Assembly: GCF_035594765.1 (NCBI RefSeq)
Contig: NC_085844.1
Coordinates: 163,200,107-163,264,106 of the forward strand
Length of the DNA stretch: 64,000 nt
Reading direction: 5' to 3'
Source of the DNA: Anolis carolinensis
Taxonomy: Eukaryota
Shown here: piece by piece, positions 1-32,015 of the stretch
How the letters are laid out: each line of letters begins with the position of its first letter
Position numbering within the stretch: position 1 is the first letter of the stretch
Notes under the pieces: model-generated
Told to the model about the DNA's origin: nothing
What the model saw: only the letters and a program-made list of their open reading frames with translations
Databases searched by the model: none
Made by a program: the position numbers and the translations under genes

Positions 1-2
1 TT

Positions 3-2054
3 GAAGTCCACACTGATCATCGTAATCTAGAACATCTAAGAACTGCCCGCAAACTAAATCAGAGGCAGCAACGTTGGGCTTTATTCTTTGAACGTTTCAA
101 CTTCCAGATTCATTATGTGACCCCAGCTCAAACCAAGCAAGCAGACGCCCTGTCACGTAAACCGGAATACGCTGCAGGACGCAAGGAGACCTTTGAATCC
201 CAACTGCTACAACCTGAGAACTTTGCCACGCTCACAGTGGGGAACACCAAATCCAGTCCCATTGGTTCAACTTCCCCTACTCCAGGACCCATCTGTGCTC
301 AAGAAATCAGGGCTAGTCAGCAGGCAGATGCCTGGGCGCAGGACCAACTTCGCCAAGGTCTGCATTTTCCCTTTTCGCTTAAAGATGGGCTGCTCTGCTA
401 TAGAAATCATGTTTATATCCCACCCGGACCGGGCAGGGAAAAAGCGCTTCGTCTGTGTCATGACTGCAAACCAGCAGGACACTTCGGACTATTTAAAACC
501 ATGCATTTGATCCTAAGAGATTTTTGGTGGCCCAAGATCCGCAAGGATGTGGAAAAATATGTCAACACCTGCCCAGTATGCCAGCGCTCCAAGATACGAA
601 GGGAGAAGCCCTCAGGGCTTTTGCACCCCCTTCCTACCCCATCTCGCCCATGGGAAATAATTTCCGCGGATTTCATCACTGACCTACCACCTTCCTGTGG
701 ATTCACCACGATCTTAGTGGTGGTGGACCTATTCACCAAGTTAGCCCATTTCATTCCCTGCGAAGGCCTCCCCACGGCCAAAGAAACTGCGGATCTATTT
801 CTTCAGCATGTTTTCAGACTACATGGATTGCCCAAGAGTTTAGTCACAGACCGTGGATCTCAATTCACCTCTCGTTTTTGGAAGGCACTACAAAAACTAT
901 TGGGCATAGACTCTCGCTTATCTTCAGCTCATCATCCCCAAACAGATGGGCAAACGGAACGCACCAATGCCACTTTGGAGCAGTATCTTCGCTGTTATGT
1001 AAACTACCAACAGGACAATTGGGCTTCTCTGTTACCACTGTCTGAGTTTGCCTACAATAATGGAGTTCAAGCTTCTACAAAAGAAACGCCGTTCTTTGCA
1101 AACTACGGTTTCCATCCACGTTTCTTTCCCCCTGTCATTGAAACTTCAGAAGTTCCCGCAGCAGAGGATTGGCTGCAGGAACTCACAGCGGTGCAACAAC
1201 TTTTGCTCCAGCAACTGGACCAAGCCAAGGAGGACTATAAACGCCACGCTGACAAACACCGCCAGCCGGGCCCCGAAATCAAGGTAGGAGATCGGGTTTT
1301 CCTGTCCACTCGCTTTCTGCCCTCCCACCGCCCATGCCGGAAGTTAGATGCCCGCTTCATTGGCCCCTATCCAGTGGTGGCGCAATTAAACCCCGTGACT
1401 TTCAAACTCCAACTTCCGCGTTCAATGCGCATTCACCCAGTGTTTCACCGTTCCCTGCTCCTTCCGGCGGATGGTGTGCGTCCTGATACAGACCAACCGG
1501 CCCCCCCTCCTGTTTTGATGAATGGGGAGGAGGAGTTCGAGGTTGAGGACATTTTGGATTCTCGCTTTCATCGCCGCCGCCTACAATATCTCATTGACTG
1601 GGTGGGTTTTGGGCCTGAGGAACGCTCTTGGGAAGACGCCTCCACAGTTCATGCTCCTGATCTAACCCGTCGCTTCCATCTGACCTATCCCACCAAACCG
1701 CGACCTCGCGCCTCGGGGAGAGGACCCCAGTTTGGGAGGGGCCCTGAGGAGGGGGATAGTGTGATGAACCATGGGCCTTGTAGTCCTGCTCAGGACATTG
1801 TAATCCCTGATGAAGATGAAAACTTGGGTTTTTTACCTTCCCAGTCTGAACTGGATTCCTCTCAGCCAGATCTTTCCCAGGCAGATCTGGAAACCTTGCA
1901 CCTGCAAGAAAGTTGTGCCCCAGAAGTATGTCAAACAACCCCAGAGCCTACTTCTCCCGTGTTCTTGCGCCGGGAGTTTTGTAAACAACAGAGAAGTTTG
2001 GATTCAGCTTCGCGCAGGAGTGCGAGGATAGCAGCTAAGAATGTTGCCAATTAA
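3..2054 (+). CDS. pol: Pol polyprotein C-terminal part: RNase H end, integrase (HHCC, DDE, GPY/F), chromodomain and an LTR-encoded tail
   Basis: Frame is open from base 3 (EVHTDHRNL...QRWALFF...ADALSR). Zinc finger H..H..CPVC; catalytic ISADFI / VTDRGS / GQTERTN; RFIGPY; chromodomain FEVEDILDSR..QYLIDWVGFGPEERSWE at about 1536-1679; stop TAA at 2052-2054 lies inside the LTR. Confidence 0.95.
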   Translation, partial: EVHTDHRNLEHLRTARKLNQRQQRWALFFERFNFQIHYVTPAQTKQADALSRKPEYAAGRKETFESQLLQPENFATLTVGNTKSSPIGSTSPTPGPICAQEIRASQQADAWAQDQLRQGLHFPFSLKDGLLCYRNHVYIPPGPGREKALRLCHDCKPAGHFGLFKTMHLILRDFWWPKIRKDVEKYVNTCPVCQRSKIRREKPSGLLHPLPTPSRPWEIISADFITDLPPSCGFTTILVVVDLFTKLAHFIPCEGLPTAKETADLFLQHVFRLHGLPKSLVTDRGSQFTSRFWKALQKLLGIDSRLSSAHHPQTDGQTERTNATLEQYLRCYVNYQQDNWASLLPLSEFAYNNGVQASTKETPFFANYGFHPRFFPPVIETSEVPAAEDWLQELTAVQQLLLQQLDQAKEDYKRHADKHRQPGPEIKVGDRVFLSTRFLPSHRPCRKLDARFIGPYPVVAQLNPVTFKLQLPRSMRIHPVFHRSLLLPADGVRPDTDQPAPPPVLMNGEEEFEVEDILDSRFHRRRLQYLIDWVGFGPEERSWEDASTVHAPDLTRRFHLTYPTKPRPRASGRGPQFGRGPEEGDSVMNHGPCSPAQDIVIPDEDENLGFLPSQSELDSSQPDLSQADLETLHLQESCAPEVCQTTPEPTSPVFLRREFCKQQRSLDSASRRSARIAAKNVAN
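1746..1759 (+). other. Polypurine tract (plus-strand primer site)
   Basis: GAGGAGGGGGATAG directly before the LTR-initial TG at 1760. Confidence 0.85.
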
Positions 2055-2731
2055 CATTGGTTCTCGTGAGAATCTTTAAGGAGTTTAACATCTGGTCTCA
2101 GAGTTTAGCTTTCGTTTCTGATTCCCAGAGAATCGCTTTGGTGAGAAAGTTGGACTCTATATAGGTGTTTTGCCCGCGTAGCAACTTCGCGGAGTCAATT
2201 CGTCAGCCTACGGAGCGAGTTGTGTCTGGACAGCGCGCTCCGATTCAAGCCTCGCTTCAGCTCAAGCCTTGCCTTGCTATCCAGCCTTCGCCTTGCTTTC
2301 CAGCCTTGTTTACCTACGGACTTTGCCTTGTTTCCCAGGACTAATCCTTGCCTTGTTTCACGGATTTTACCAAGTTATTCCACGGACCTTGTTCCTGTTC
2401 TCAGTTACCTTGTTCCACGTTCAAGCCTTGTTTCAAGTATCAAGTTATTTCCTAGCCACGCTCAAGTTTTATGGACTAAGGACCTTGTCATCTCCCCTCA
2501 CTTTGCTTGGCAAAGTGAGTGTTTCGGTTATTGGATTACAACTTTGGACCTTAATATTTCTTATTGGACATTGCTTTTTTGGACTAATTCTGACCTTTCC
2601 TGAAGGGTCTAATTCTGGACTATTTTCTATACTTGTTTTTATTAACTTTATATATTCCTTCAATAAAGATATTAGTTAGATTCTGGCCTCTGTGTATGGT
2701 TATTGGTGCCTCTGCTGCCTGGGTCGTGACA
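1760..2731 (+). repeat. 3' LTR (972 bp)
   Basis: Starts TGTGATGA and ends TCGTGACA. TATA-like TATATA at 2158-2163, AATAAA at 2662-2667. Both ends match the solo LTR at 15860-16715, which fixes the boundaries. Confidence 0.93.
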
Positions 2732-15260: not shown

Positions 15261-15859
15261 CCCTTCTTTAAGAAGAAGACCCTTTTCCCTTCAAGTGTGA
15301 ATGTGTGAGACAGACAGACAGTATCCAGAACATATCTGGAAAAGAAGGCAGGAAAGCAGTGAATAAAGTTTCGGCAGACTCTCAGCCTCAGGTTAGGTGA
15401 GCAAATACCTTGAACTTATCTTGTTGATAAAGAGGATCATCTATCTTTATATACACATCTTGATAGTCTTGATAGCTGTCTGGCTTGGCAGGCAGATAGA
15501 GGGGGTTGTTCAACGTTTCTGCTCTCAGGTAATTGTCTAAACGGTCACAAAGAGGTGGTTGTCTTTAGGTTACATTCTCATACATATCTAAGAAACATTT
15601 ATACATTTCATATATTTCATATAAGAAATTCATACAGTAAAGACACAAATCATACAGAAATCATTAAATAGATGCAATTTATTTAAAAGGTTAGAAACAA
15701 TATAGTTCATGGAGTACAACTGCTGCTAGATCTGTTCCCAATCTTCTAAAGCTTAAATTTTTACAACTTTGGACCTCCAGAAAAGGTTTTTAATAAAAAA
15801 TAAAAATATATTTAATGGTTGTCTCTTGGTGAACTATAAATCCTTTGGAGAGAGGGGTG

Positions 15860-16715
15860 TGTGATGACTCATGGGCCTTGTAGTCCTGTTCCTAGTACTA
15901 TTGTGGCAGACGAAGAGGAAAACATGGGATTTTTGCCGGTTCAGCCAGAGCCGGAGCCTCTCCACCTGGAGGATGTTTGCCCTCAAGAATTCAGCCAAAC
16001 AAGCCTTGGGCAGAACTCCCCCCCGTTTTCCCGGAGGGACAATTATACTAGAGATAGAGGAGTCAGAGAAGCTAATCGCCGAAGCCTGAGAATCGCTGCC
16101 AAACAACTGGATGATTAGGTCTGCTTCCCTTGGGAAATTCTAAGGAGTCATGCATCTGGACAGAGTTGGGTTTCGCTTCTCGTTCTCTAGGGAAAGAGCT
16201 CTGTTGGCGGGAAAACGAGACCCAATATAGGTGTTTGTTGCAAGGGAAACTTTGCAATTGATCAGCTTGAGGAGAGAGATCGTGTGTGGACTTCGTAATC
16301 CCTGTTCCCTGCTTCCCGGATCAAGTTTCAAGTCTTGCCTCGTCTCACGGTTTGCCACGGACTATTGTTTCATGCTTCAAGTTTGCCTCGTTTTTAAGTC
16401 TTGGGTCAAGTCAAGAATCAAGTTTATTTCCAGCCTGGTTGTCAAGCTTCATTGGACTATAAAGACCTTGTTATTTCCCCACACTATTGCTTGGCAAAGT
16501 GTGTGTTTCGGTCAAGTGGATTATAACTTTGAACTCTAATATCTTATATTGGACAATACATTTCTGGACTATATTTGACCTTATCTTAAAGGTCTACTTC
16601 TGAACTTTATTCTTCACTTGTTTTTATTGATTTTATATATTTCCTTAATAAAGATATTAGATAGATTCTGGCCTCTGTGCAAGGTTATTGGTGCTCTGCA
16701 GCCTGGGTCCTGACA
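15860..16715 (+). mobile_element. Solo LTR (856 bp) of a sister subfamily of the chromovirus at 1-2731
   Basis: TGTGATGA...CCTGACA ends, near-identical termini and 3' region to the LTR at 1760-2731, AATAAA at 16647-16652, flanks GGGTG / GGGGG (5-bp TSD with one mismatch), no internal domain adjacent. Confidence 0.92.
15861..16118 (+). CDS. LTR-encoded 85-aa frame homologous to the integrase C-terminal tail at 1761-2054; expression from a solo LTR is unproven
   Basis: HGPCSP, DEEENMGFLP, LHL, SPPFSRR and RRSLRIAAK align with HGPCSP, DEDENLGFLP, LHL, SPVFLRR and RRSARIAAK. The length difference is an in-frame 36 nt and the stop sits at the same position. Confidence 0.6.
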   Translation: MMTHGPCSPVPSTIVADEEENMGFLPVQPEPEPLHLEDVCPQEFSQTSLGQNSPPFSRRDNYTRDRGVREANRRSLRIAAKQLDD

Positions 16716-18155
16716 GGGGGTTACCGTGGCTCTATAACATAAGCACTGAGAAAATACAGTTTTTAGCATATATTTCAAGAAAGTCAAGAAAACGTTATGG
16801 TTCATTGTAGGCATCGTACCCAACCATGCTTAAAAAAACTTAACTATGATGTCAGAACTGAAAAATTGTGTTTGGCAGCAGGCTGGCAAATGTGAATAAG
16901 AAATTATAGCCTGGCTGTGCTGCTCCCTCATCATCAGTTGTCTCTATACTGAGTTTTTCTAAGATGTCTTAGTATATAAAGGGTTTAGGGAATAGCTAGA
17001 ACTACCTTGATGTTTTTTAAACATCTTGCATTAATGACAGTTAATTAATTAATGGCAAGGAGATGTAGTGTTTTACCCTTTTCAGCCCTAGATAAAGTGT
17101 GTTGGCCTACAGCATCAGAGAACTAGATAGGAAAAGTGTACAGAAACATCTCCCCAATGAGAAAAGATGCAAGATGTAATACATTATATATTTGTGTTTT
17201 AATTAACAATTTGAAATCTTTACATGTTTAATGAACAAGCAATGTTGAAGAAAGATTATGTGATAATGGTCAGAATGAGATAGGTACACCATGAGCACAT
17301 AGCTCACACTTTGCTAATTTATCTTGTAAATTGCCTTTACTCTGATAATTCACCTGAATGAGGTGTATCTTTTGCTCTTAAGACATTTACAGTTGTTTAA
17401 AAGTGAACAGTAATTTGTCTACTGTGTTTAAATGATTAATTGAATAAAAACATCCAGCTATCGAGGTGCTCCATGCCCATTAGACAGCAGTTATTTTAAC
17501 AAAAAAAACTTATTTTTAAAGGCAAGATCTATATATCCCAACACATCAAAATCTTCTGAGAAGAATGGTTAGGAGATTTGGTGAGCATGCAAACATCTGT
17601 TTGTCCATCAAGGAAACTGGAAGTGGGCTGTGTGACTCTTTATTGTTTGATTTCTGTGCAATTTTTAATATTTTGGGCCAGCTGTCCCACAAATGGTCTT
17701 TCAGGCCAAAAATAGCTTTGTGGACTTTCTGGGCTGTGCCATCCATTGGTTACAGTGGCTGGCACAAGTTTTCTCGGATTTCAGGCAATTATCTTTCCAT
17801 GCTTTTCAAGGTGCCAAGGACATGTTTTTGCAGGCAAAACACTTTTTTTTTTTGCAAATGAGCTACCACACGTCTCCCTAAGTCCAGGGGGACCTGAAGT
17901 ATAACAATGCTGCCAACATTGCCATTTTCAAAAAAGAATACACAAGTTGGTAGGCAAAATTGTTCTTTCAGCCTTGTACCTAAATGTAAGAAAGCAAGCA
18001 AAAGAATGTAAACAAAAAGACAACACAACTATAGCCTATGTGCAAAATCAAAAATCAAGATTTCATATTACTTTGTTTATATATTTATATTTTATTGATG
18101 CATCCATTCAATTAACAAACTTTTGCCGTACAAGTCTTGTCTCAATATACATTAT

Positions 18156-18297
18156 TTTTTCTTCGTGTACTCTGTGAATGCACACTAATGGAGAGGCTGC
18201 GCCTGCGCAGGCTCCAACGGATACTCTTCCAAGCTAAAGTTTGAAATTTGGCGGTAACCCCGCCTCACTCCCCAGTTCCTTTTTTTCCGCCGCAAAG
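18156..18297 (+). repeat. DIRS left inverted terminal repeat
   Basis: Reverse complement of about 23838-24010, apart from a 37-nt gap and small differences. Confidence 0.9.
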
Positions 18298-18320
18298 CTC
18301 ACTTCGGACTCTTCGTTCCT

Positions 18321-20351
18321 ATGTCGACTACGCGTTTCAAGAGGTGCACTCAATGTGCCGCTAAGATTCCAGACTCCGACGGCCATGCTAAGTGCCTTTT
18401 CTGCTTCGGTGAAAGTCACGTCGTCGGTACCTGCCGTTTTTGCCTAGCCTTTACAGCTCAGGCCCGGAGAAATAGGGCTGCGAGACTCCGAGCAGCTCTC
18501 TACGAGAAGACCCTTGCTCCCGAAGCTTCTACTTCCACTTCGGCCTCGATGGCATCCAGGCCTACTCCGTCGGTATCATCCAAGGCCTCGAAAACTTCGA
18601 GAGCTAAATTGACCAAACCGCCCTGCATGGTGACTACAGCCACTGTTTCGACCCGGTCGGGCAAGATGGGCCATTCATCGACCTCGAGTTCGGTGACTTC
18701 GGCCATTTCCACTCGATCCCGCCTGGCTTCGCCGCCATCTTCTTCCGCCATGAAGATTGCCTTTAAGAGGGCCCAGGAGGAATCCAGATGAGCCCAGTCT
18801 GACTCGGCAGCTGTGTGCCCGATTCCACCGACGCCGGGTAAATCGCTAAGGGTCGCGTCAAAGCAACCTCAAGCAAAGAAGCGAATGATTCAGAGGTCGT
18901 CCTCCTCAGCTTCTTCTAAGAAGGACGTCCCCTCCTCCGTGGCCTCCTCCAGGAGATCCTCCCCTATCCAACCGGCACAACGCCTCCGCTCTTCTTCTTC
19001 TCCTCATGGTCAGTCCTCGGATGCGGACGCTCAACTCTCTCCCGACCAGTCGGTCAGGACAGTCATTAAAGTTCCTCAGCCAGCCCCATCGCGCCCTCAG
19101 GCTTGACAAGAACTTTTCCCTCCGTCTCAAACACCGGAGAGGGGCAGACAGATGACGCGCCTAGCTCGTGCCGCCCAGGCCTCTGCCTCCAAGGGCGTTC
19201 GTCCACAGCCTGCTGCTGCTGCTCTTGAGGTGATACCTCAACAGGACTCTGCGCTTGTTTCTCCTCCCCGGTCCCCTCAAGGGCCCGAGGAGGATGACCC
19301 CGATATCGAACACCCCGAGTCGATCCTCGACCTCTCCCCGCCTCACGATGCCTACGAGGTCGACCCGCCCTCCCCGACGGATAATATCCGGGCTTTCTCC
19401 GACCATATGGTCAGAATGGCAGACGCTCTGTGGATGGAAATTAAACAAACCTCAAAAGCTGTTACCGACCCTTTTTTCAAGAGGGTCCAGGCTCAAGCCC
19501 CACCAGCCACCTTGCTGCCTTTTCTTCCATTCCTCCTGGACGTAATCCAGGCATCTTGGAAGACTCCATCTTCGATACCTCCAACCTCTAAGAAAATAGA
19601 GGCCTGGTACCGAACCGATGATGAAGCCTTGGAATGGCTCAAACATCACCCTGATCCAAACTCCATGGTGGTAAAGGCCTCCCAATTGTCAGGTCGACAG
19701 TCCAACTCCCCTGCCGACAGGGAAGGTAAAAGATTCGATGCTGTAGGCTGCAAGCTGTACTCCAGCGCTCTCCTCCTTTGCCGTATGGCGAACTACGGAG
19801 CCTGTATGGGCGCTTATCAACAGATCCTCTGGGAAAAAGCCCAACCTTTCTTCGCCAAACTTTCTGACGAAGACCGGTCAGTTCTCTCAACCCTCCAACA
19901 GGAGGCGGACTCCCTTGCACACCACCAAATCCAAATGGCGAAACACACCGGCAATACCGCCAGAAAGATGATTGCCCACGCAATTGCGATCAGACGACAT
20001 GCATGGCTTCGGTCCTCAGGACTCTCTTCTTCCTCTCGACAAGTGATCGAAGACCTTCCCTTCGACACTCAGGGTCTTTTCAACTCAAGCACTAATGACA
20101 AACTGAAGTCCAACCATGACTTCAAGATCCTCGCATCAAAATGCGGGACCGATCAGCCCCAGGCTCAACGGACCCGATGGTTCCCTCAACGATACCGTCA
20201 CTTCCCTCAGCCTTTTCGTCACCAACCGTTTCGATGTTCGTCGAGCTCGAGTCACCACAGTCACCAACAACAAACTCGCCGCCAGCACCAGGTCCCGAAA
20301 GGTCGAGGCAAAGGTGCTACAGCTATGCCACAACCCCAACGTCGGGCCTGA
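18321..20351 (+). pseudogene. DIRS ORF1 (gag-like): N-terminal Cys/His zinc finger, long S/P-rich linker, probable LAP2alpha-like C-terminal domain
   Basis: The track ORFs at 18321, 18813 and 19152 share one frame, broken only by two TGA codons (18789, 19104) compatible with CGA>TGA decay. N-terminus CTQC..H..CLFC...H....CRFC; C-terminal RRHAWL...IEDLPFD..GLF typical of vertebrate DIRS gag. Confidence 0.85.
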
Positions 20352-22281
20352 CACCCACTCTCTCGGGGACACTTCTACCTACACTACTATTGCCACTACC
20401 ATGCCTTTCTTCAGCTCCGACCAAAACTCTCCTCTCTGCTCTTTCCGCGATCGTCTAGCTCCTTTCTACCACGAATGGGAGTCTATCACCTCAGATGCCT
20501 GGGTTCTCCGCATTGTCAGGGACAGCTACGCCTTGGAATTCGAAACTTTGCCCCCCACGGGTCACATCCTTCACACCGACCTTTCACCGGAGATCTGCTC
20601 CGAGGTCGACTCCCTTCTGGCGAAGGGCGCAATCCAGCCTTCTCCTTCTGGGCAGGACACTCGAGGTTTCTTCTCGAAATACTTTACGGTTCCCAAGAGA
20701 GGCGGAGGTCTTCGGCCCATCCTCGACCTGCGAGCCTTAAACCTCTTCATTCTACCTTCAAAATTTCGAATGGTCTCGGTAGCCTCCATCCTCCCAGTGC
20801 TCCGACACGGAGACTACTTTGCCTCTATAGACTTACGGGACGTGTATTTTCATGTTTCGATACGCCGATCCCACAGACGCTTCCTCTCCTTCAAGCTCCT
20901 GGGACAGTCTTACCAGTTCACAGTTCTCCCTTTCGGCCTCGTGACGGCCCCAAGGGTCTTCACGAAGGTGGTCGCCGTGGTGGCAGCGAATCTAAGAAAT
21001 CGAGGCATAATGATCTTTCCTTATCTGGACGATTGGATGATTGTCGCATCCTCTTCTAACCCTCTCTCTTCTACAACGGCTGGGCCTTCAGTTGAACTTC
21101 GAAAAATCCCAACTCCTCCCGACCACAGAAATCCGCTTCATCGGAGCTCTCTTCAACTCTCTTGCGGAAACTGCTCCCTGCCGAGAGACAGGTTCCTAGC
21201 CCTTCAACAGCACCTTCTTCTCCTCCTCCACAACCGCAGGGTCAGAGCCCACTCTGTCCAAGTCCTTCTGGGTCATATGGCCTCCACGGTCATGGTCACC
21301 CCTTTCGCCAGACTGCGTCTCAGACCTCTCCAAAGATGGTTTATAGACTCCTACAAACACCATCGGCACCCGAGCTCGAGGTTTCTCATGGTACCGCACC
21401 AAGTTCGCCTCTCCCTTCGTTGGTGGCAGGACCCAGCGAACGTTTGTGTGGGACTTCCCTTCCATTCCCCGCTTCCGTCAGTCACCATCACGACTGACGC
21501 CTCCAATTTTGTGTGGGGAGCTCACATGTCGAACCTCACCGTCAGGGACCTTTGGTCCGATCAGGAAAAGTCTCACCACATAAACTTTCTAGAACTGTTA
21601 TCAATCTTCAAAGCTCTCCGAGCGTTTGCTCGCTTTCTTCCCCACAAGACTGTTCTAATCCAAACGGACAACGTAGTAGCCATGTACTACATCAACAAAC
21701 AAGGAGGTACGGGCTCGAGGAAGCTGATGGCTCTTTCAATGGACATCTGGCTATGGTGCATACCGAGACACATAACCCTCTCGGCGGTTCACCTACCGGG
21801 TGCCCAAAACACACTAGCAGACTCTCTAAGCAGAGTGACGACCTCCCCCCACGAGTGGCGTCTCGATCCCGAAGTCCTGTAATCCGTCTTCGAAGGCTGG
21901 GGTTGGCCAACTCTAGACCTCTTTGCCTCCCCCTCGAACGCTCAACTTCCTCGCCTCGGAGCGAGACTCCCTCCAAACTCGACTCCAGGCTGTCTCGGAG
22001 ACGCATTTCTCCTTGATTGGACTCTCAAACCCGTTTACCTTTTTCCTCCCTTCCCTCTAATCTCGAGGGTAATAGAGAGACTCTATCTGACGCCGACATC
22101 GGCCATCCTAATTGCCCCCGCATGGCCACGCCAGCCGTGGTTCCCTACTCTACTCCGGATGTGCGCAGAGCCTCCTTGCACTCTCCCGACTCTCCCTCAT
22201 CTCCTATCTTTGCAGAGGGGACAGGTCCTCCACCCCGACGTTCCGTCCCTACACCTAACGGCTTGGAGGATACTTCCATAA
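20116..22281 (+). pseudogene. DIRS ORF2: reverse transcriptase, RNase H and adenine methyltransferase-like domain
   Basis: RPILDLR, SIDLRDVYFH, LPFGL, YLDDW; TTDAS, HINFLEL, QTDN, ADSLSR. Past a premature TAA (21880) the same frame gives DLFAS (21916-21930), YLFPPF (22036-22053) and LTAWRILP* (22281). Two compensating frameshifts near 21058 and 21175. Confidence 0.9.
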
Positions 22282-23290
22282 ATTCTCTCCATCCAGACCT
22301 GCAGGCGATCCTTCGTTCCGCTCACAAGCCGGCTACGTCAAGAGCCTTATGCTTACAAGCTTACTAAGTTCCAAACTTTTCTTCGGGACCGGGACGTCGA
22401 CCCCTCCTCCACTTCGATCCCGCTAGTCCTGGACTTCCTACTTTCTCTCGTGGATCGTCAACTCTCTCTGGCCTCGATAAAATCCTATCTCGCCGCTCTC
22501 TCCTGGCATTTCCAATGCCAAGGACAACCCTCTCTTTTCACTAACAACCTCATTAAGACCTTTCTTCGAGGTTATAACAACCTCCGTCCTCCAGTTCAGC
22601 CTCCGACCCCTGGGTGGAGCCTCGAACTCGTCCTTTCTCAACTGGTTTCAGCTCCCATGGCCTCCGCCGACCTTCACCTTCTCTCTTGGAAGACTGCCTT
22701 CCTAGTCGCTATCACTTCTGCGCGCAGGCCTTCAGAGCTGGCTGCCCTTCGGGTGGACGAACCCTACCTCCGCTTCCACCACGACAGGGCTGTTCTTCGC
22801 CCGGACATCACCTTCCTACCTAAGGTGGTCTCCGCTTTTCACCTTAACCAGGATATAATACTCCCTGCTTTCTTTCCTAATCCTTCTTCTGCTTTGGAGC
22901 GGAAACTCCATCTCCTGGACCTCAGAAGAACCCTCCTCTTCTACAGAGACAGGACTAAAGACATACGTAAGTCGCCTAGACTTTTTGTGGCGTATGCTAC
23001 CCATAAGCTGGGCGAACCACTTTCTTCTCAAAGACTCTCACACTGGATTGCTCAGGCTATTGAACTTGCCTACCAGTTGGCTAAACGCCCACCCCCCCTC
23101 GATCCGCCCTAGATCGACAAGGGGCCTTTCCACTTCTACTGCCTTCCTCCGGGGTGTCCCTCTAGATTCCATCTGTCGAGCGGCTATCTGGTTCACCCCA
23201 TCCACCTTTGTTTCACACTACAGGATGGACTCAAAGAACCTCAGGGACTCGGCCTTTGCCAGGTCCATCCTTTCCTCCTGCCTTTCCTAA
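20475..23290 (+). pseudogene. DIRS ORF3: tyrosine recombinase with a long N-terminal extension overlapping ORF2
   Basis: Catalytic-domain motifs SIKSYLAALS, AITSARRPSEL, FLPKV, RSTR, AAIW, FVSHY. Frameshifts near 22347 and in the C-run near 23092. The upstream alternate frame (ORFs 20475, 21162, 21513, 22017) is nearly continuous. Confidence 0.85.
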
Positions 23291-23694
23291 CGTTCCTTGC
23301 CTTACTCAGAGCCAGTTCTCATGTTTTTCTCTTTACGAGTTCAATGATGTCTCTCAGGCCTTATTTCACAGGATATGTTCAAGGGTTTATTAATGTAGTG
23401 CTTGTGTACTATACTTACCAATTACACTGTGATTTGTTTTTCCTCGATACTTCTGCCTACTTTTCAGGAAATTTGATTATACTTACCTCTGTATTTCTTA
23501 CAGACTATCGTTCACATACAATGTTGCGATTGTTTTCTGGATCCTAATGTCTGGGACCAGCTCTGCACTATATGCTGTTACGTTGTTTGACCATTGCACT
23601 TGCATTTGCACCTTGTGCTTAATAAATGTGTTGTTTGGACATTAAACTCGTTGTCGGGTTTGCTATCCCACCTTCCTATACCTCAGCTTGCTAG

Positions 23695-23789
23695 TCTCCA
23701 TTAGTGTGCATTCACAGAGTACACGAAGAAAAAGGACAGGTTGCTTACCTGTAACCGTGTTTCTTCGAGTGTACTCTGTGAATTCACAC
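23695..23789. repeat. DIRS internal complementary region (ICR)
   Basis: 23695-23733 is complementary to the left terminus and 23732-23789 to the right terminus, joined across AAAAA. Confidence 0.92.
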
Positions 23790-23837
23790 AATCCTGCCCT
23801 TCCTTCCCCACATGCAAACCTCTCCCTTTCTCGTCGC

Positions 23838-24038
23838 CTTTGCGGCGTAGGAACTGGGGAGTGAGCGCGGAGGGCGCCCTTTTATACCCTCCGGGGAGAG
23901 GGGCGGGGTTACCGCCAAATTTCAAACTTTAGCTTGGAAGAGTATCCGTTGGAGTCTGCGCAGGCGCAGCCTCTCCATTAGTGTGAATTCACAGAGTACA
24001 CTCGAAGAAACACGGTTACAGGTAAGCAACCTGTCCTT
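23838..24038 (-). repeat. DIRS right inverted terminal repeat plus right extension
   Basis: Inverted match to 18156-18297; the terminal extension ...CACGGTTACAGGTAAGCAACCTGTCCTT is complementary to the ICR. Confidence 0.9.
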
Positions 24039-30508: not shown

Positions 30509-32015
30509 GGGGAAGGCAGGAGGAGGCAATGCTGGCGGCGTGGAAGGTGGCTGGGGCCCTCTTCTTCCTCTTCCGGGAGAGTGGCAGGCGGCCGTTGCGC
30601 CCAGCCTGGTTGTCCTTGGTGTCCCAGCGATGGTCTTCCAGCCTCCCCATGAACACCGTGGTTCTGTTAGTGCTGCAATAGCACTAACCTGGGTGGTGGG
30701 AGCAGATGGGACACTTCCACCGCATCCTGGAGCCCAGACCAGATCCTGGAGCCCAGATCCTGGAGCCCTTCCTCATCCCAATACTGGATCACATTCACTA
30801 TGTGCAAAGTCTTAAGAAAATTGTCATCAATGTGCCTGAGCAGTCGGCTGTGATCTATGACAACATGACTCTCCAGATCGACGGCGTCCTGTACTTGCGC
30901 ATCATGGACCCTTACAAGGCTAGCTATGGAGTGGAGGACCCAGAGTATGCCATAACCCAGCTGGCCCAGACCACCATGCGATTGGAGCTGGGAAAGCTCT
31001 CCCTCGACAAAGTATTCTGGGAGCGTGAAAGCCTGAATGCCAGCATTGTGGACGCCATCAACCAGGCCTCAGATTACTGGGGCATCGGGTGCCTGTGCTA
31101 CAAGATCAAGGACATCCAGGTGCTGTCCCGTGTGAAGGAGTCCATTTATTTATTTATTTCCACTATTTATACCCCGCCCTTCTCACCCGAGGGGACTTAG
31201 GGCAGCTTACAAGTGGCAATTGATGCCGTTACACTAATATACAATGAACTAAAACGTTAAAACAGTTAAAATAGTCATAAAATACGATATACAAAGTTTA
31301 AAACAATGCAAAGTGCTTATGCCATTCATCCACCAGACCTTATACAAGAGCCGTAATGTACATGCAGGTGGAGGCCGAGAGACGCAAGCGGGCCACTGTC
31401 CTGGAGTTGGAAATCACGCGAGAGTCTGCCATCAGTGAGGCAGAAGGACAAAAGCAGGCTCAGATCCTGACCTCTGAAGCAGAAAAAGCAGAGCAAATCA
31501 ACCAGGTTGCGGGGGAGGCCAGTGCTTTTGTGGTGAAGGCAAAGGCCAAAGCGGAGGTAGCTGCTCTTACACAGCAGAACGGCAACTCGGCAGTATCTCT
31601 CTGTGGCCGAGCAGTACGTGAGTGCCTTTTCTAAGCTGGTGAAGGAGTCCAACACCGTTCTCTGTCCCTCCAGCACAGGAGACATCAGCAGCATGGTGGC
31701 CCAGGCCATGGGCATCTACAAATCCCTGAGCAAAGCCCCGCCGCCAAAGGCCCCGGAAGCCACCACTGTCCCTTCCTTCCAAGCCCAACAGCCCTTCAGC
31801 ATTGAACCCTCCGAGACGGACCAGCCAGCCAGCAGCTAACAGAGAGGCCAGGGGACAGTGAGGTGGCTCTTTTTGGCCCCTTCTGCTTGCCTGTCTGCTG
31901 TAGGTCGATTTGCTCTCCTTGGACTCTTGAATCCCCCTCATCCACAAACAGATGCACACACTTTGTTTTGTTTTCTAATTTGGATTTAATCACGTAATAA
32001 AGAGACACGAGCTGG
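30509..32015 (+). pseudogene. STOML2: Processed pseudogene (retrocopy) of stomatin-like protein 2
   Basis: Intronless match to SLP-2: ATG at 30529, LPMNTVV, YVQSLKKIVINVPEQSAV, QIDGVLYLRIMDPYKASYGVEDPEYA, MQVEAERRKRATVLE, AEQYVSAFSKL, SMVAQAMGIY, stop at 31837-31839, AATAAA at 31996-32001. Has stops, frameshifts, a small tandem duplication near 30724-30768 and an insertion. TSD GCATA(T/C)TTTAAAA at 30496-30508 and 32016-32028. Confidence 0.95.
31146..31355 (-). mobile_element. L2-type LINE 3'-end fragment inserted into the STOML2 retrocopy
   Basis: Interrupts VKES|MxMQ; begins (TTTA)n...TTTATACCCCGCCCTTCTC..GGGGACT, an antisense L2-like 3' end with a (TAAA)n tail. Confidence 0.7.

Follow-up and report, generated by a model that had tools for sequence, protein, structure and literature searches.

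The window analysed here, a stretch of 64,000 nt of the Anolis carolinensis genome, holds two LTRs of a single retrotransposon family that both encode a short peptide in their U3. One belongs to a young full-length element of subfamily A and the other is a solo LTR of subfamily B; the location of both and of their parts is given in Table 1. The start of the solo LTR, which an earlier note on this DNA had placed at 15861, lies one nucleotide upstream, at 15860. It ends at 16715 and carries the ORF at 15864-16118, and it is indeed a solo LTR: a single LTR is present, target-site duplications agree at 4 of 5 positions and neither a primer binding site (PBS) nor a polypurine tract (PPT) adjoins it. 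In the right flank of the solo LTR, contig cover over window positions 16761-17500 was zero in sequencing runs X1 and X4, and in run X16 the depth there was roughly half that of the left flank; this flank may be polymorphic, or the gap in cover may be a filter artefact.

Table 1. Features of the subfamily A element and of the subfamily B solo LTR in the window
Feature	Position	Strand	Remarks
3' part of pol ORF, young subfamily A element	1..2054	+	end of RNase H, integrase, SH3, chromodomain, tail; full frame of 1261 aa starts left of the window
Chromodomain PF00385, HP1/CBX1-like	1536..1679	+	E 3e-9; best PDB matches CBX1/CBX5, E ca. 1e-6
PPT	1746..1759	+	pol frame reads through
3' LTR of subfamily A element	1760..2731	+	closes the full-length element; element target-site duplication GTTTG/GTTTG
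96-aa tail of subfamily A	1764-2054	+	motif RRSARIAAK at 2013-2039
Target-site duplication, 5' copy GGGTG	15855..15859	+	3' copy GGGGG at 16716-16720; 4/5 identical
Solo LTR, subfamily B, Ty3/gypsy chromovirus	15860..16715	+	856 nt, TGTGATG...TGACA; PPT absent upstream, PBS absent downstream
ORF, 84-aa copy of pol/integrase C-terminal tail in U3	15864..16118	+	ATG within LTR terminus; same frame continuous with pol in full-length B elements
Acidic block DEEENMGF	15909..15932	+	conserved columns, 85 intact tails
S-P-x-F motif (SPPF)	16017..16028	+	in 84/85 intact tails; overlies C-run, the chief frameshift site of decayed copies
HMGN/Dot5-like motif RRSLRIAAK	16077..16103	+	by sequence comparison
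TATA-like box of LTR	16225..16234	+	downstream of ORF; putative function
AATAAA polyadenylation signal of LTR	16647..16652	+	putative function

The family is a Ty3/gypsy chromovirus. In the element L091, pol has the order protease, RT, RNase H, integrase, with strong matches for RT, RNase H and integrase and weak ones, below the Pfam cut-off, for protease; an SH3 domain and a chromodomain at the integrase C-terminus and a gag with a CCHC knuckle were also detected, together with TG...CA LTRs, PBS, PPT and a 5-bp target-site duplication. At least 8,113 LTRs of this family occur in the genome (G000; control 0). Named near-identical proteins come from Anolis carolinensis and named relatives are gypsy proteins of fish and squamates, and the retrotransposon family itself has probably been catalogued already.

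In subfamily A, dozens of identical young full-length copies have a 1261-aa frame that extends across the PPT and terminates 96 codons into the 3' LTR; full-length elements of subfamily B (L093, L095-L097) likewise have open frames, of 1015-1294 aa, that finish with the 84-aa tail. Between chromodomain and tail, neither a stop nor a frameshift was found in intact elements. Since the pol frame thus runs in both subfamilies through the chromodomain and the PPT into the 3' LTR, the ORF of the solo LTR is a copy of the pol tail, and the 84-96-aa LTR ORF is the C-terminal tail of pol/integrase. The U3 of the 3' LTR serves as template for both LTRs of a new copy, and LTR-LTR recombination then leaves a solo LTR, so that every solo would inherit a copy of the tail. 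In a more distant lineage (L267-L271, L273, L275, L276, L279), many copies are frameshifted at the G-run of the PPT, directly before the tail.

Comparison of the two tails of the window bears out what the earlier note had read at the codon level. The terminal motif is written CGC AGG AGT GCG AGG ATA GCA GCT AAG in subfamily A (2013-2039) and CGC CGA AGC CTG AGA ATC GCT GCC AAA in the solo LTR (16077-16103), with 8 residues kept, 7 of them under other codons. In the acidic blocks DEDENLGFLP and DEEENMGFLP, the codons for D, G, L and P are changed synonymously; the two tails differ in length by 36 nt net, both stops lie four codons past AAK and both ATGs stand at LTR position 5. Coding rather than promoter constraint, as had been proposed, is supported by a signal specific to one frame: NG86 estimates between the tails are pS 0.67, pN 0.31 and dN/dS 0.25, differences at codon positions 1/2/3 number 28/25/46, and pN/pS is 0.47 in the coding frame versus 1.08-1.25 in the other frames, except for the antiparallel frame (0.60). 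That promoter or transcription-factor sites in U3 impose a DNA-level constraint which mimics coding has a practically negligible chance of being right. At the start of the ORF, where codons coincide with the LTR terminus, synonymous change is scarce, as such a constraint would have it, but the idea is refuted past the first ca. 8 codons by synonymous sites near saturation (pS 0.67-0.70), by motif residues kept under many codons and by main length classes that stay in frame (see below).

When the subfamily A element is set against four of subfamily B, the tail has a dN/dS of 0.21-0.24, compared with 0.02-0.10 for RT, RNase H, integrase and chromodomain, and the tail dN of 0.40-0.44 versus 0.02-0.03 in the integrase core corresponds to ca. 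20 times faster amino-acid change. The dS of the tail (window 1764-2054 against L093, L095-L097) is 1.7-2.1, ca. three times that of integrase (0.50-0.65), possibly owing to exchange between LTRs or quicker evolution of U3. These unequal rates look like those of a separate regime, in which the element protease would cleave the tail off or the tail would act on its own as a small accessory chromatin protein, comparable to MLV p12 or to the U3-overlapping products of retroviruses; the frame is continuous with the chromodomain in intact elements, against this reading, which we consider very improbable. The in-frame insertions at window positions 1839-1886, by which the 84-aa tail grew to 91 and 96 aa, resemble short duplications. 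They add SQ dipeptides, which we take to be possible ATM/ATR sites.

Two samples of LTRs were used to locate the selection. The first covers all subfamilies and consists of 90 of the first 100 family places listed (the 10 omitted are of subfamily-A type), one of them with no resolvable start; the 89 LTRs obtained (36 solo, 27 3' and 26 5') make 91 with the two of the window. An intact tail of 84, 91 or 96 aa is found in 85 of the 91. Columns without an amino-acid variant in at least two copies include E-x3-F-x-P, L-x-L, C, E, QT, S-P-x-F-x-R and R-R-S-x-R-I-A-A, the first of which comprises the last E and the F of the acidic block and the P two residues later; most of the motif columns are encoded by 2-4 different codons in these 85 tails. 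The second sample was picked blind to the tail with a non-coding 22-mer located ca. 420 nt downstream of it, which matched 1,358 places; the first 90 were used, 6 of which could not be resolved, and with the focal solo the remaining 84 make a sample of 85 LTRs (64 solo, 10 5', 10 3' and 1 other). Thirty loci picked by protein similarity were kept out of the comparison of private and shared variants.

In this second sample, variants private to one copy comprise 66 nonsynonymous changes and 1 stop versus 21 synonymous changes, or a dN/dS of ca. 1.09 (p=0.81) against a neutral ratio of 2.94 taken from non-coding private rates. Variants in two copies number 11 nonsynonymous and 3 synonymous, and those in at least three copies 46 and 44, with dN/dS of ca. 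0.36 (p=2e-6); the private and the latter, shared class differ clearly (67/21 vs 46/44, Fisher p=6e-4). The excess of synonymous change that the earlier note had anticipated across LTRs is present among shared variants and missing from private ones. Private changes in solos alone amount to 50 nonsynonymous or stop versus 18 synonymous, and private substitutions are as dense in the tail (0.0034 per site) as in the non-coding LTR (0.0028) or slightly denser. At the three arginines and the serine of the motif every variant found in at least three copies is synonymous, and private R>C, R>Q and R>K changes occur.

Of the five ATG-to-motif length classes with at least 4 copies, four are multiples of three (213, 219, 234 and 249 nt; both samples, 147/171 LTRs with all anchors), and the fifth, of 218 nt in 4 copies, probably reflects slippage in the C-run; non-coding distances in U3/R scatter over all three phases in both samples. 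As to individual copies of the second sample, 14/64 solos, 3/10 5' LTRs and 1/10 3' LTRs are out of frame, mostly at one C-run, with five copies that break elsewhere; slippage or assembly error could account for part of the C-run frameshifts. Frame is thus preserved in the main classes of U3 indels, as the earlier note would have it, but not in individual solos, and its claim that the solo LTR is itself under selection fails on these frameshifts and on the neutral private changes. Because shared variants are constrained and private ones neutral, selection worked on the replicating lineages rather than on inserted copies: we conclude with high confidence that the tail is under purifying selection in replicating elements and decays neutrally in solo LTRs. 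There is a general trap here, in that a small ORF of solo LTRs may seem selected when it carries the inherited trace of selection on master elements; the comparison of private with shared variants tells such inherited selection from selection on the solo copies.

These data bear directly on the proposal that a small protein, initiated at the ATG and made from host read-through transcripts, is under selection in solo LTRs. The ATG is present in 85/85 intact tails of the first sample and 50/64 solos of the B lineage are in frame, as this proposal would predict, but high intactness is expected of young copies. Private changes are neutral, their density in the tail is no lower than in the non-coding LTR and the motif itself takes private amino-acid changes; purifying selection after insertion, as expected under exaptation, was not found for the class (private dN/dS ca. 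1.09). The data do not support the ATG as the mark of a maintained small gene: in 4/85 copies of the second sample it is changed alike to AGG although the frame up to the motif is open, which points to a lineage able to spread in its absence. The ATG sits in TGTGATG at the LTR terminus, which mirrors the opposite LTR end as an imperfect inverted repeat; the ends of sushi LTRs are given as TGTYANR...CNTNACA (PMC3601003) and most CRM LTRs are stated to begin with TGATG (PMC3059260). Some 100 nt separate the end of the ORF from the TATA-like box downstream of it (16225), so that transcription started by the solo itself would miss the ORF.

Host transcription from outside finds some support in a RefSeq model, P0010, in which a host exon with a GT donor (G000:C2:125116356-125116559) is spliced to an AG acceptor lying 20 nt before another solo LTR, 173 kb off (C2:125289738-125290037; L292, L302), in frame with a complete 91-aa tail; this is a gene prediction only. 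Read-through expression of a solo-LTR tail as a by-product is, on this model, possible. Pieces of the chromovirus element are contained in three further gene models (P0005, P0009 and P0040). In four sequencing runs, whose contigs are of uncertain type and uninformative on expression, depth was flat in the flanks and very high in the repeat. Overall, a selected host-expressed small protein is largely refuted as a property of the class and very improbable, while a single exapted copy among thousands of solo LTRs is possible.

The tail ends in a motif of the form RRS[A/L]RIAA[K/R]. Among the 85 intact tails, RRSARIAAK occurs in 51, RRSLRIAAK in 14, RRSARIAAR in 13, RRSLRIAAR in 4 and single variants in three, and the arginines at motif positions 1, 2 and 5 are unchanged in all 85 under several synonymous codons. 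More distant lineages keep the motif under other codons in 13/15 loci (L265-L279; one unparsed and one decayed), and in L291 it reads RRSLRLAT. Residue shuffling produced RRSxR[IL] 51 and 71 times per 200,000. The RRSARIAA form is identical at 7/8 positions to yeast Dot5 RRSARIAT. The Dot5 sequence binds nucleosomes and needs its three arginines and the acidic patch (PMC13347269), and HMGN RRSARLSA and Dsup bind the acidic patch through the same core as seen by cryo-EM (PMC12487698).

The likeness concerns the motif and not the HMGN domain over its length: searches with the tail gave no match in Pfam (E up to 1) or the PDB (E up to 10), HMGN included in both cases, and the best ESM Atlas match (0.77) was below the useful range and revealed no family. 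Two other short motifs were considered for the tail and discarded: the acidic block lacks the first F of the TFIIS-N-interacting FxGF motif (ENLGF/ENMGF), and LDSSQP, viewed as a Ty5-like targeting motif, sits in a subfamily-specific insertion.

Binding to histones was modelled with residues 62-96 of the subfamily A tail (RRSAR form; the RRSLR form of the focal solo is outside the model) and H2A and H2B of the same genome, with no custom alignment. The complex scored 0.72 versus 0.02 for the best of three controls. The score mark was met by 51/78 solved and 2/108 mismatched microbial pairs and by 71/105 solved and 2/126 unrelated eukaryotic pairs, a calibration outside which peptides and disordered chains fall. 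Runs share at least 83% of contacts and partner pLDDT is at least 62. Confident contacts are restricted to tail residues 82-89 and 91 and involve H2A E61/E64 and H2B Q47/E105/H109 (usual numbering); the first modelled arginine contacts H2B Q47, the second H2A E64 and the third H2A E61, in the register reported for Dsup, and H2A E56, D90 and E92 and H2B E113 are absent from these contacts. The score may stem from the memory of solved acidic-patch complexes and therefore indicates likeness rather than binding.

Retrotransposon integrases such as that of Ty1 carry basic C-terminal NLSs, and R-x-S-hydrophobic also fits the sites of mitotic kinases. The tail could accordingly be selected as part of pol with a basic motif devoted to nuclear import, non-specific DNA or RNA binding or kinase regulation, and some squamate relatives indeed retain a basic end without the exact motif. 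Against this, S, I and A are fixed like the arginines, lysine never replaces the three arginines in shared variants, the motif is without the lysine core of the classical NLS consensus, and both the near-complete Dot5 match and the model, which puts the motif on the acidic patch, point elsewhere. Such a role is unlikely, yet it keeps an appreciable share of our belief.

We rather favour, as probable with some reserve, a pol tail encoded in the U3 of the 3' LTR, selected in replicating elements and decaying in solos, whose motif is a predicted acidic-patch binder and likely a second chromatin tether on integrase beside the chromodomain. In the elements, pol is read past the PPT to a stop inside the 3' LTR, and selection is seen in changes common to copies and missing from private ones. 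The tail would remain on the mature integrase as a low-complexity linker with a terminal arginine anchor; the motif is predicted to bind the H2A-H2B acidic patch of the nucleosome, with a putative effect on integration rate or site choice.

Relatives were sought as the best 150 representatives to a query made of chromodomain and tail. Five named squamate proteins (Rhineura, Vipera, Crotalus, Podarcis and Salvator) continue past the PPT into an acidic tract and 3/5 reach a basic end, all without the exact motif, and RRSxR[IL] is absent from all 120 mostly fish relatives examined; judged from these proteins, the exact motif is not a deep feature. The mostly fish relatives often terminate with SPx[FY], ca. 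20 residues beyond the presumed PPT boundary: 68/120 do so in a query-biased set, the query having held that end, and 8/121 in a less biased set, for a chance rate of ca. 0.0005 per terminus. Fish sushi-type chromoviruses (for example P0004, Oryzias melastigma) share the domain order of the lizard element and their pol apparently extends ca. 20 residues past the PPT/LTR boundary, as inferred from protein only. Lizard tails hold the fish-type SPx[FY] motif internally, whereas fish tails are short and devoid of acidic block and RRSxR[IL]. The proteins concerned are P0004 and P0156-P0274. S-P-x-F, a candidate BRCT ligand, matches the consensus of BRCT phospho-ligands; pSPxF is described as a BRCA1 BRCT ligand (PMC4747905, PMC3315748).

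In plants, ORFs of CRM group A and of some Reina elements reach into the 3' LTR and the LTR-encoded part of CRM-A is a putative chromatin-targeting domain (PMC3059260, PMC3605345); the same coding run through the PPT occurs in CRM group A, with its CR motif, and in the Reina-clade Bingo of beet. The lizard element differs in having a canonical HP1-like chromodomain upstream of the PPT, in an LTR part that adds an HMGN-type motif and in its vertebrate host. The core RRSxR and the three required arginines are those of HMGN RRSARLSA, tardigrade Dsup RRSSRLTS and yeast Dot5 RRSARIAT, and the lizard tail is predicted on the same H2A-H2B surface; in contrast to these proteins, its motif is LTR-encoded at the C-terminus of a retrotransposon pol and its binding is predicted only. 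KSHV LANA, CMV IE1 and prototype foamy virus Gag are acidic-patch tethers (PMC9040877) in which a short arginine-anchor peptide likewise links a mobile genome to nucleosomes, as predicted for the lizard element; theirs lie on Gag or herpesvirus proteins, whereas the lizard motif lies on a Ty3/gypsy pol/integrase and has an HMGN-type sequence. Pol ORFs that enter the 3' LTR and acidic-patch tethers are thus known, and what appears to be new is the HMGN-type motif on a retrotransposon pol tail: a literature search confined largely to openly available papers returned neither such a motif on a retrotransposon integrase nor an account of the lizard tail, and prior mention is possible.

Chromatin engagement by vertebrate chromoviruses, the presumed source of PEG10 and RTL1 (PMC10570562), is poorly known, and the nine-residue motif is a candidate testable with peptide and nucleosomes. 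If the prediction holds, integrase would join HMGN, Dsup and Dot5 among HMGN-type acidic-patch binders, as a retrotransposon counterpart of foamy virus Gag. A more ambitious version, which we regard as tentative and on the whole doubtful, would make of it an LTR-encoded HMGN/Dot5-type anchor giving a vertebrate retrotransposon integrase a two-point tether, with phosphorylated S-P-x-F recruiting BRCT repair proteins to the integration site and thousands of solos offering nucleosome-binding exons for host splicing.

Finally, two other sequences were detected further along the window. A second retroelement at ca. 18156-24038, with RT and RNase H at 20116-21882, displays split inverted terminal repeats with internal complementary segments and is probably of the DIRS type, and a broken Band 7/stomatin-like coding sequence at 30706-31634 has no apparent introns and is probably a processed pseudogene.
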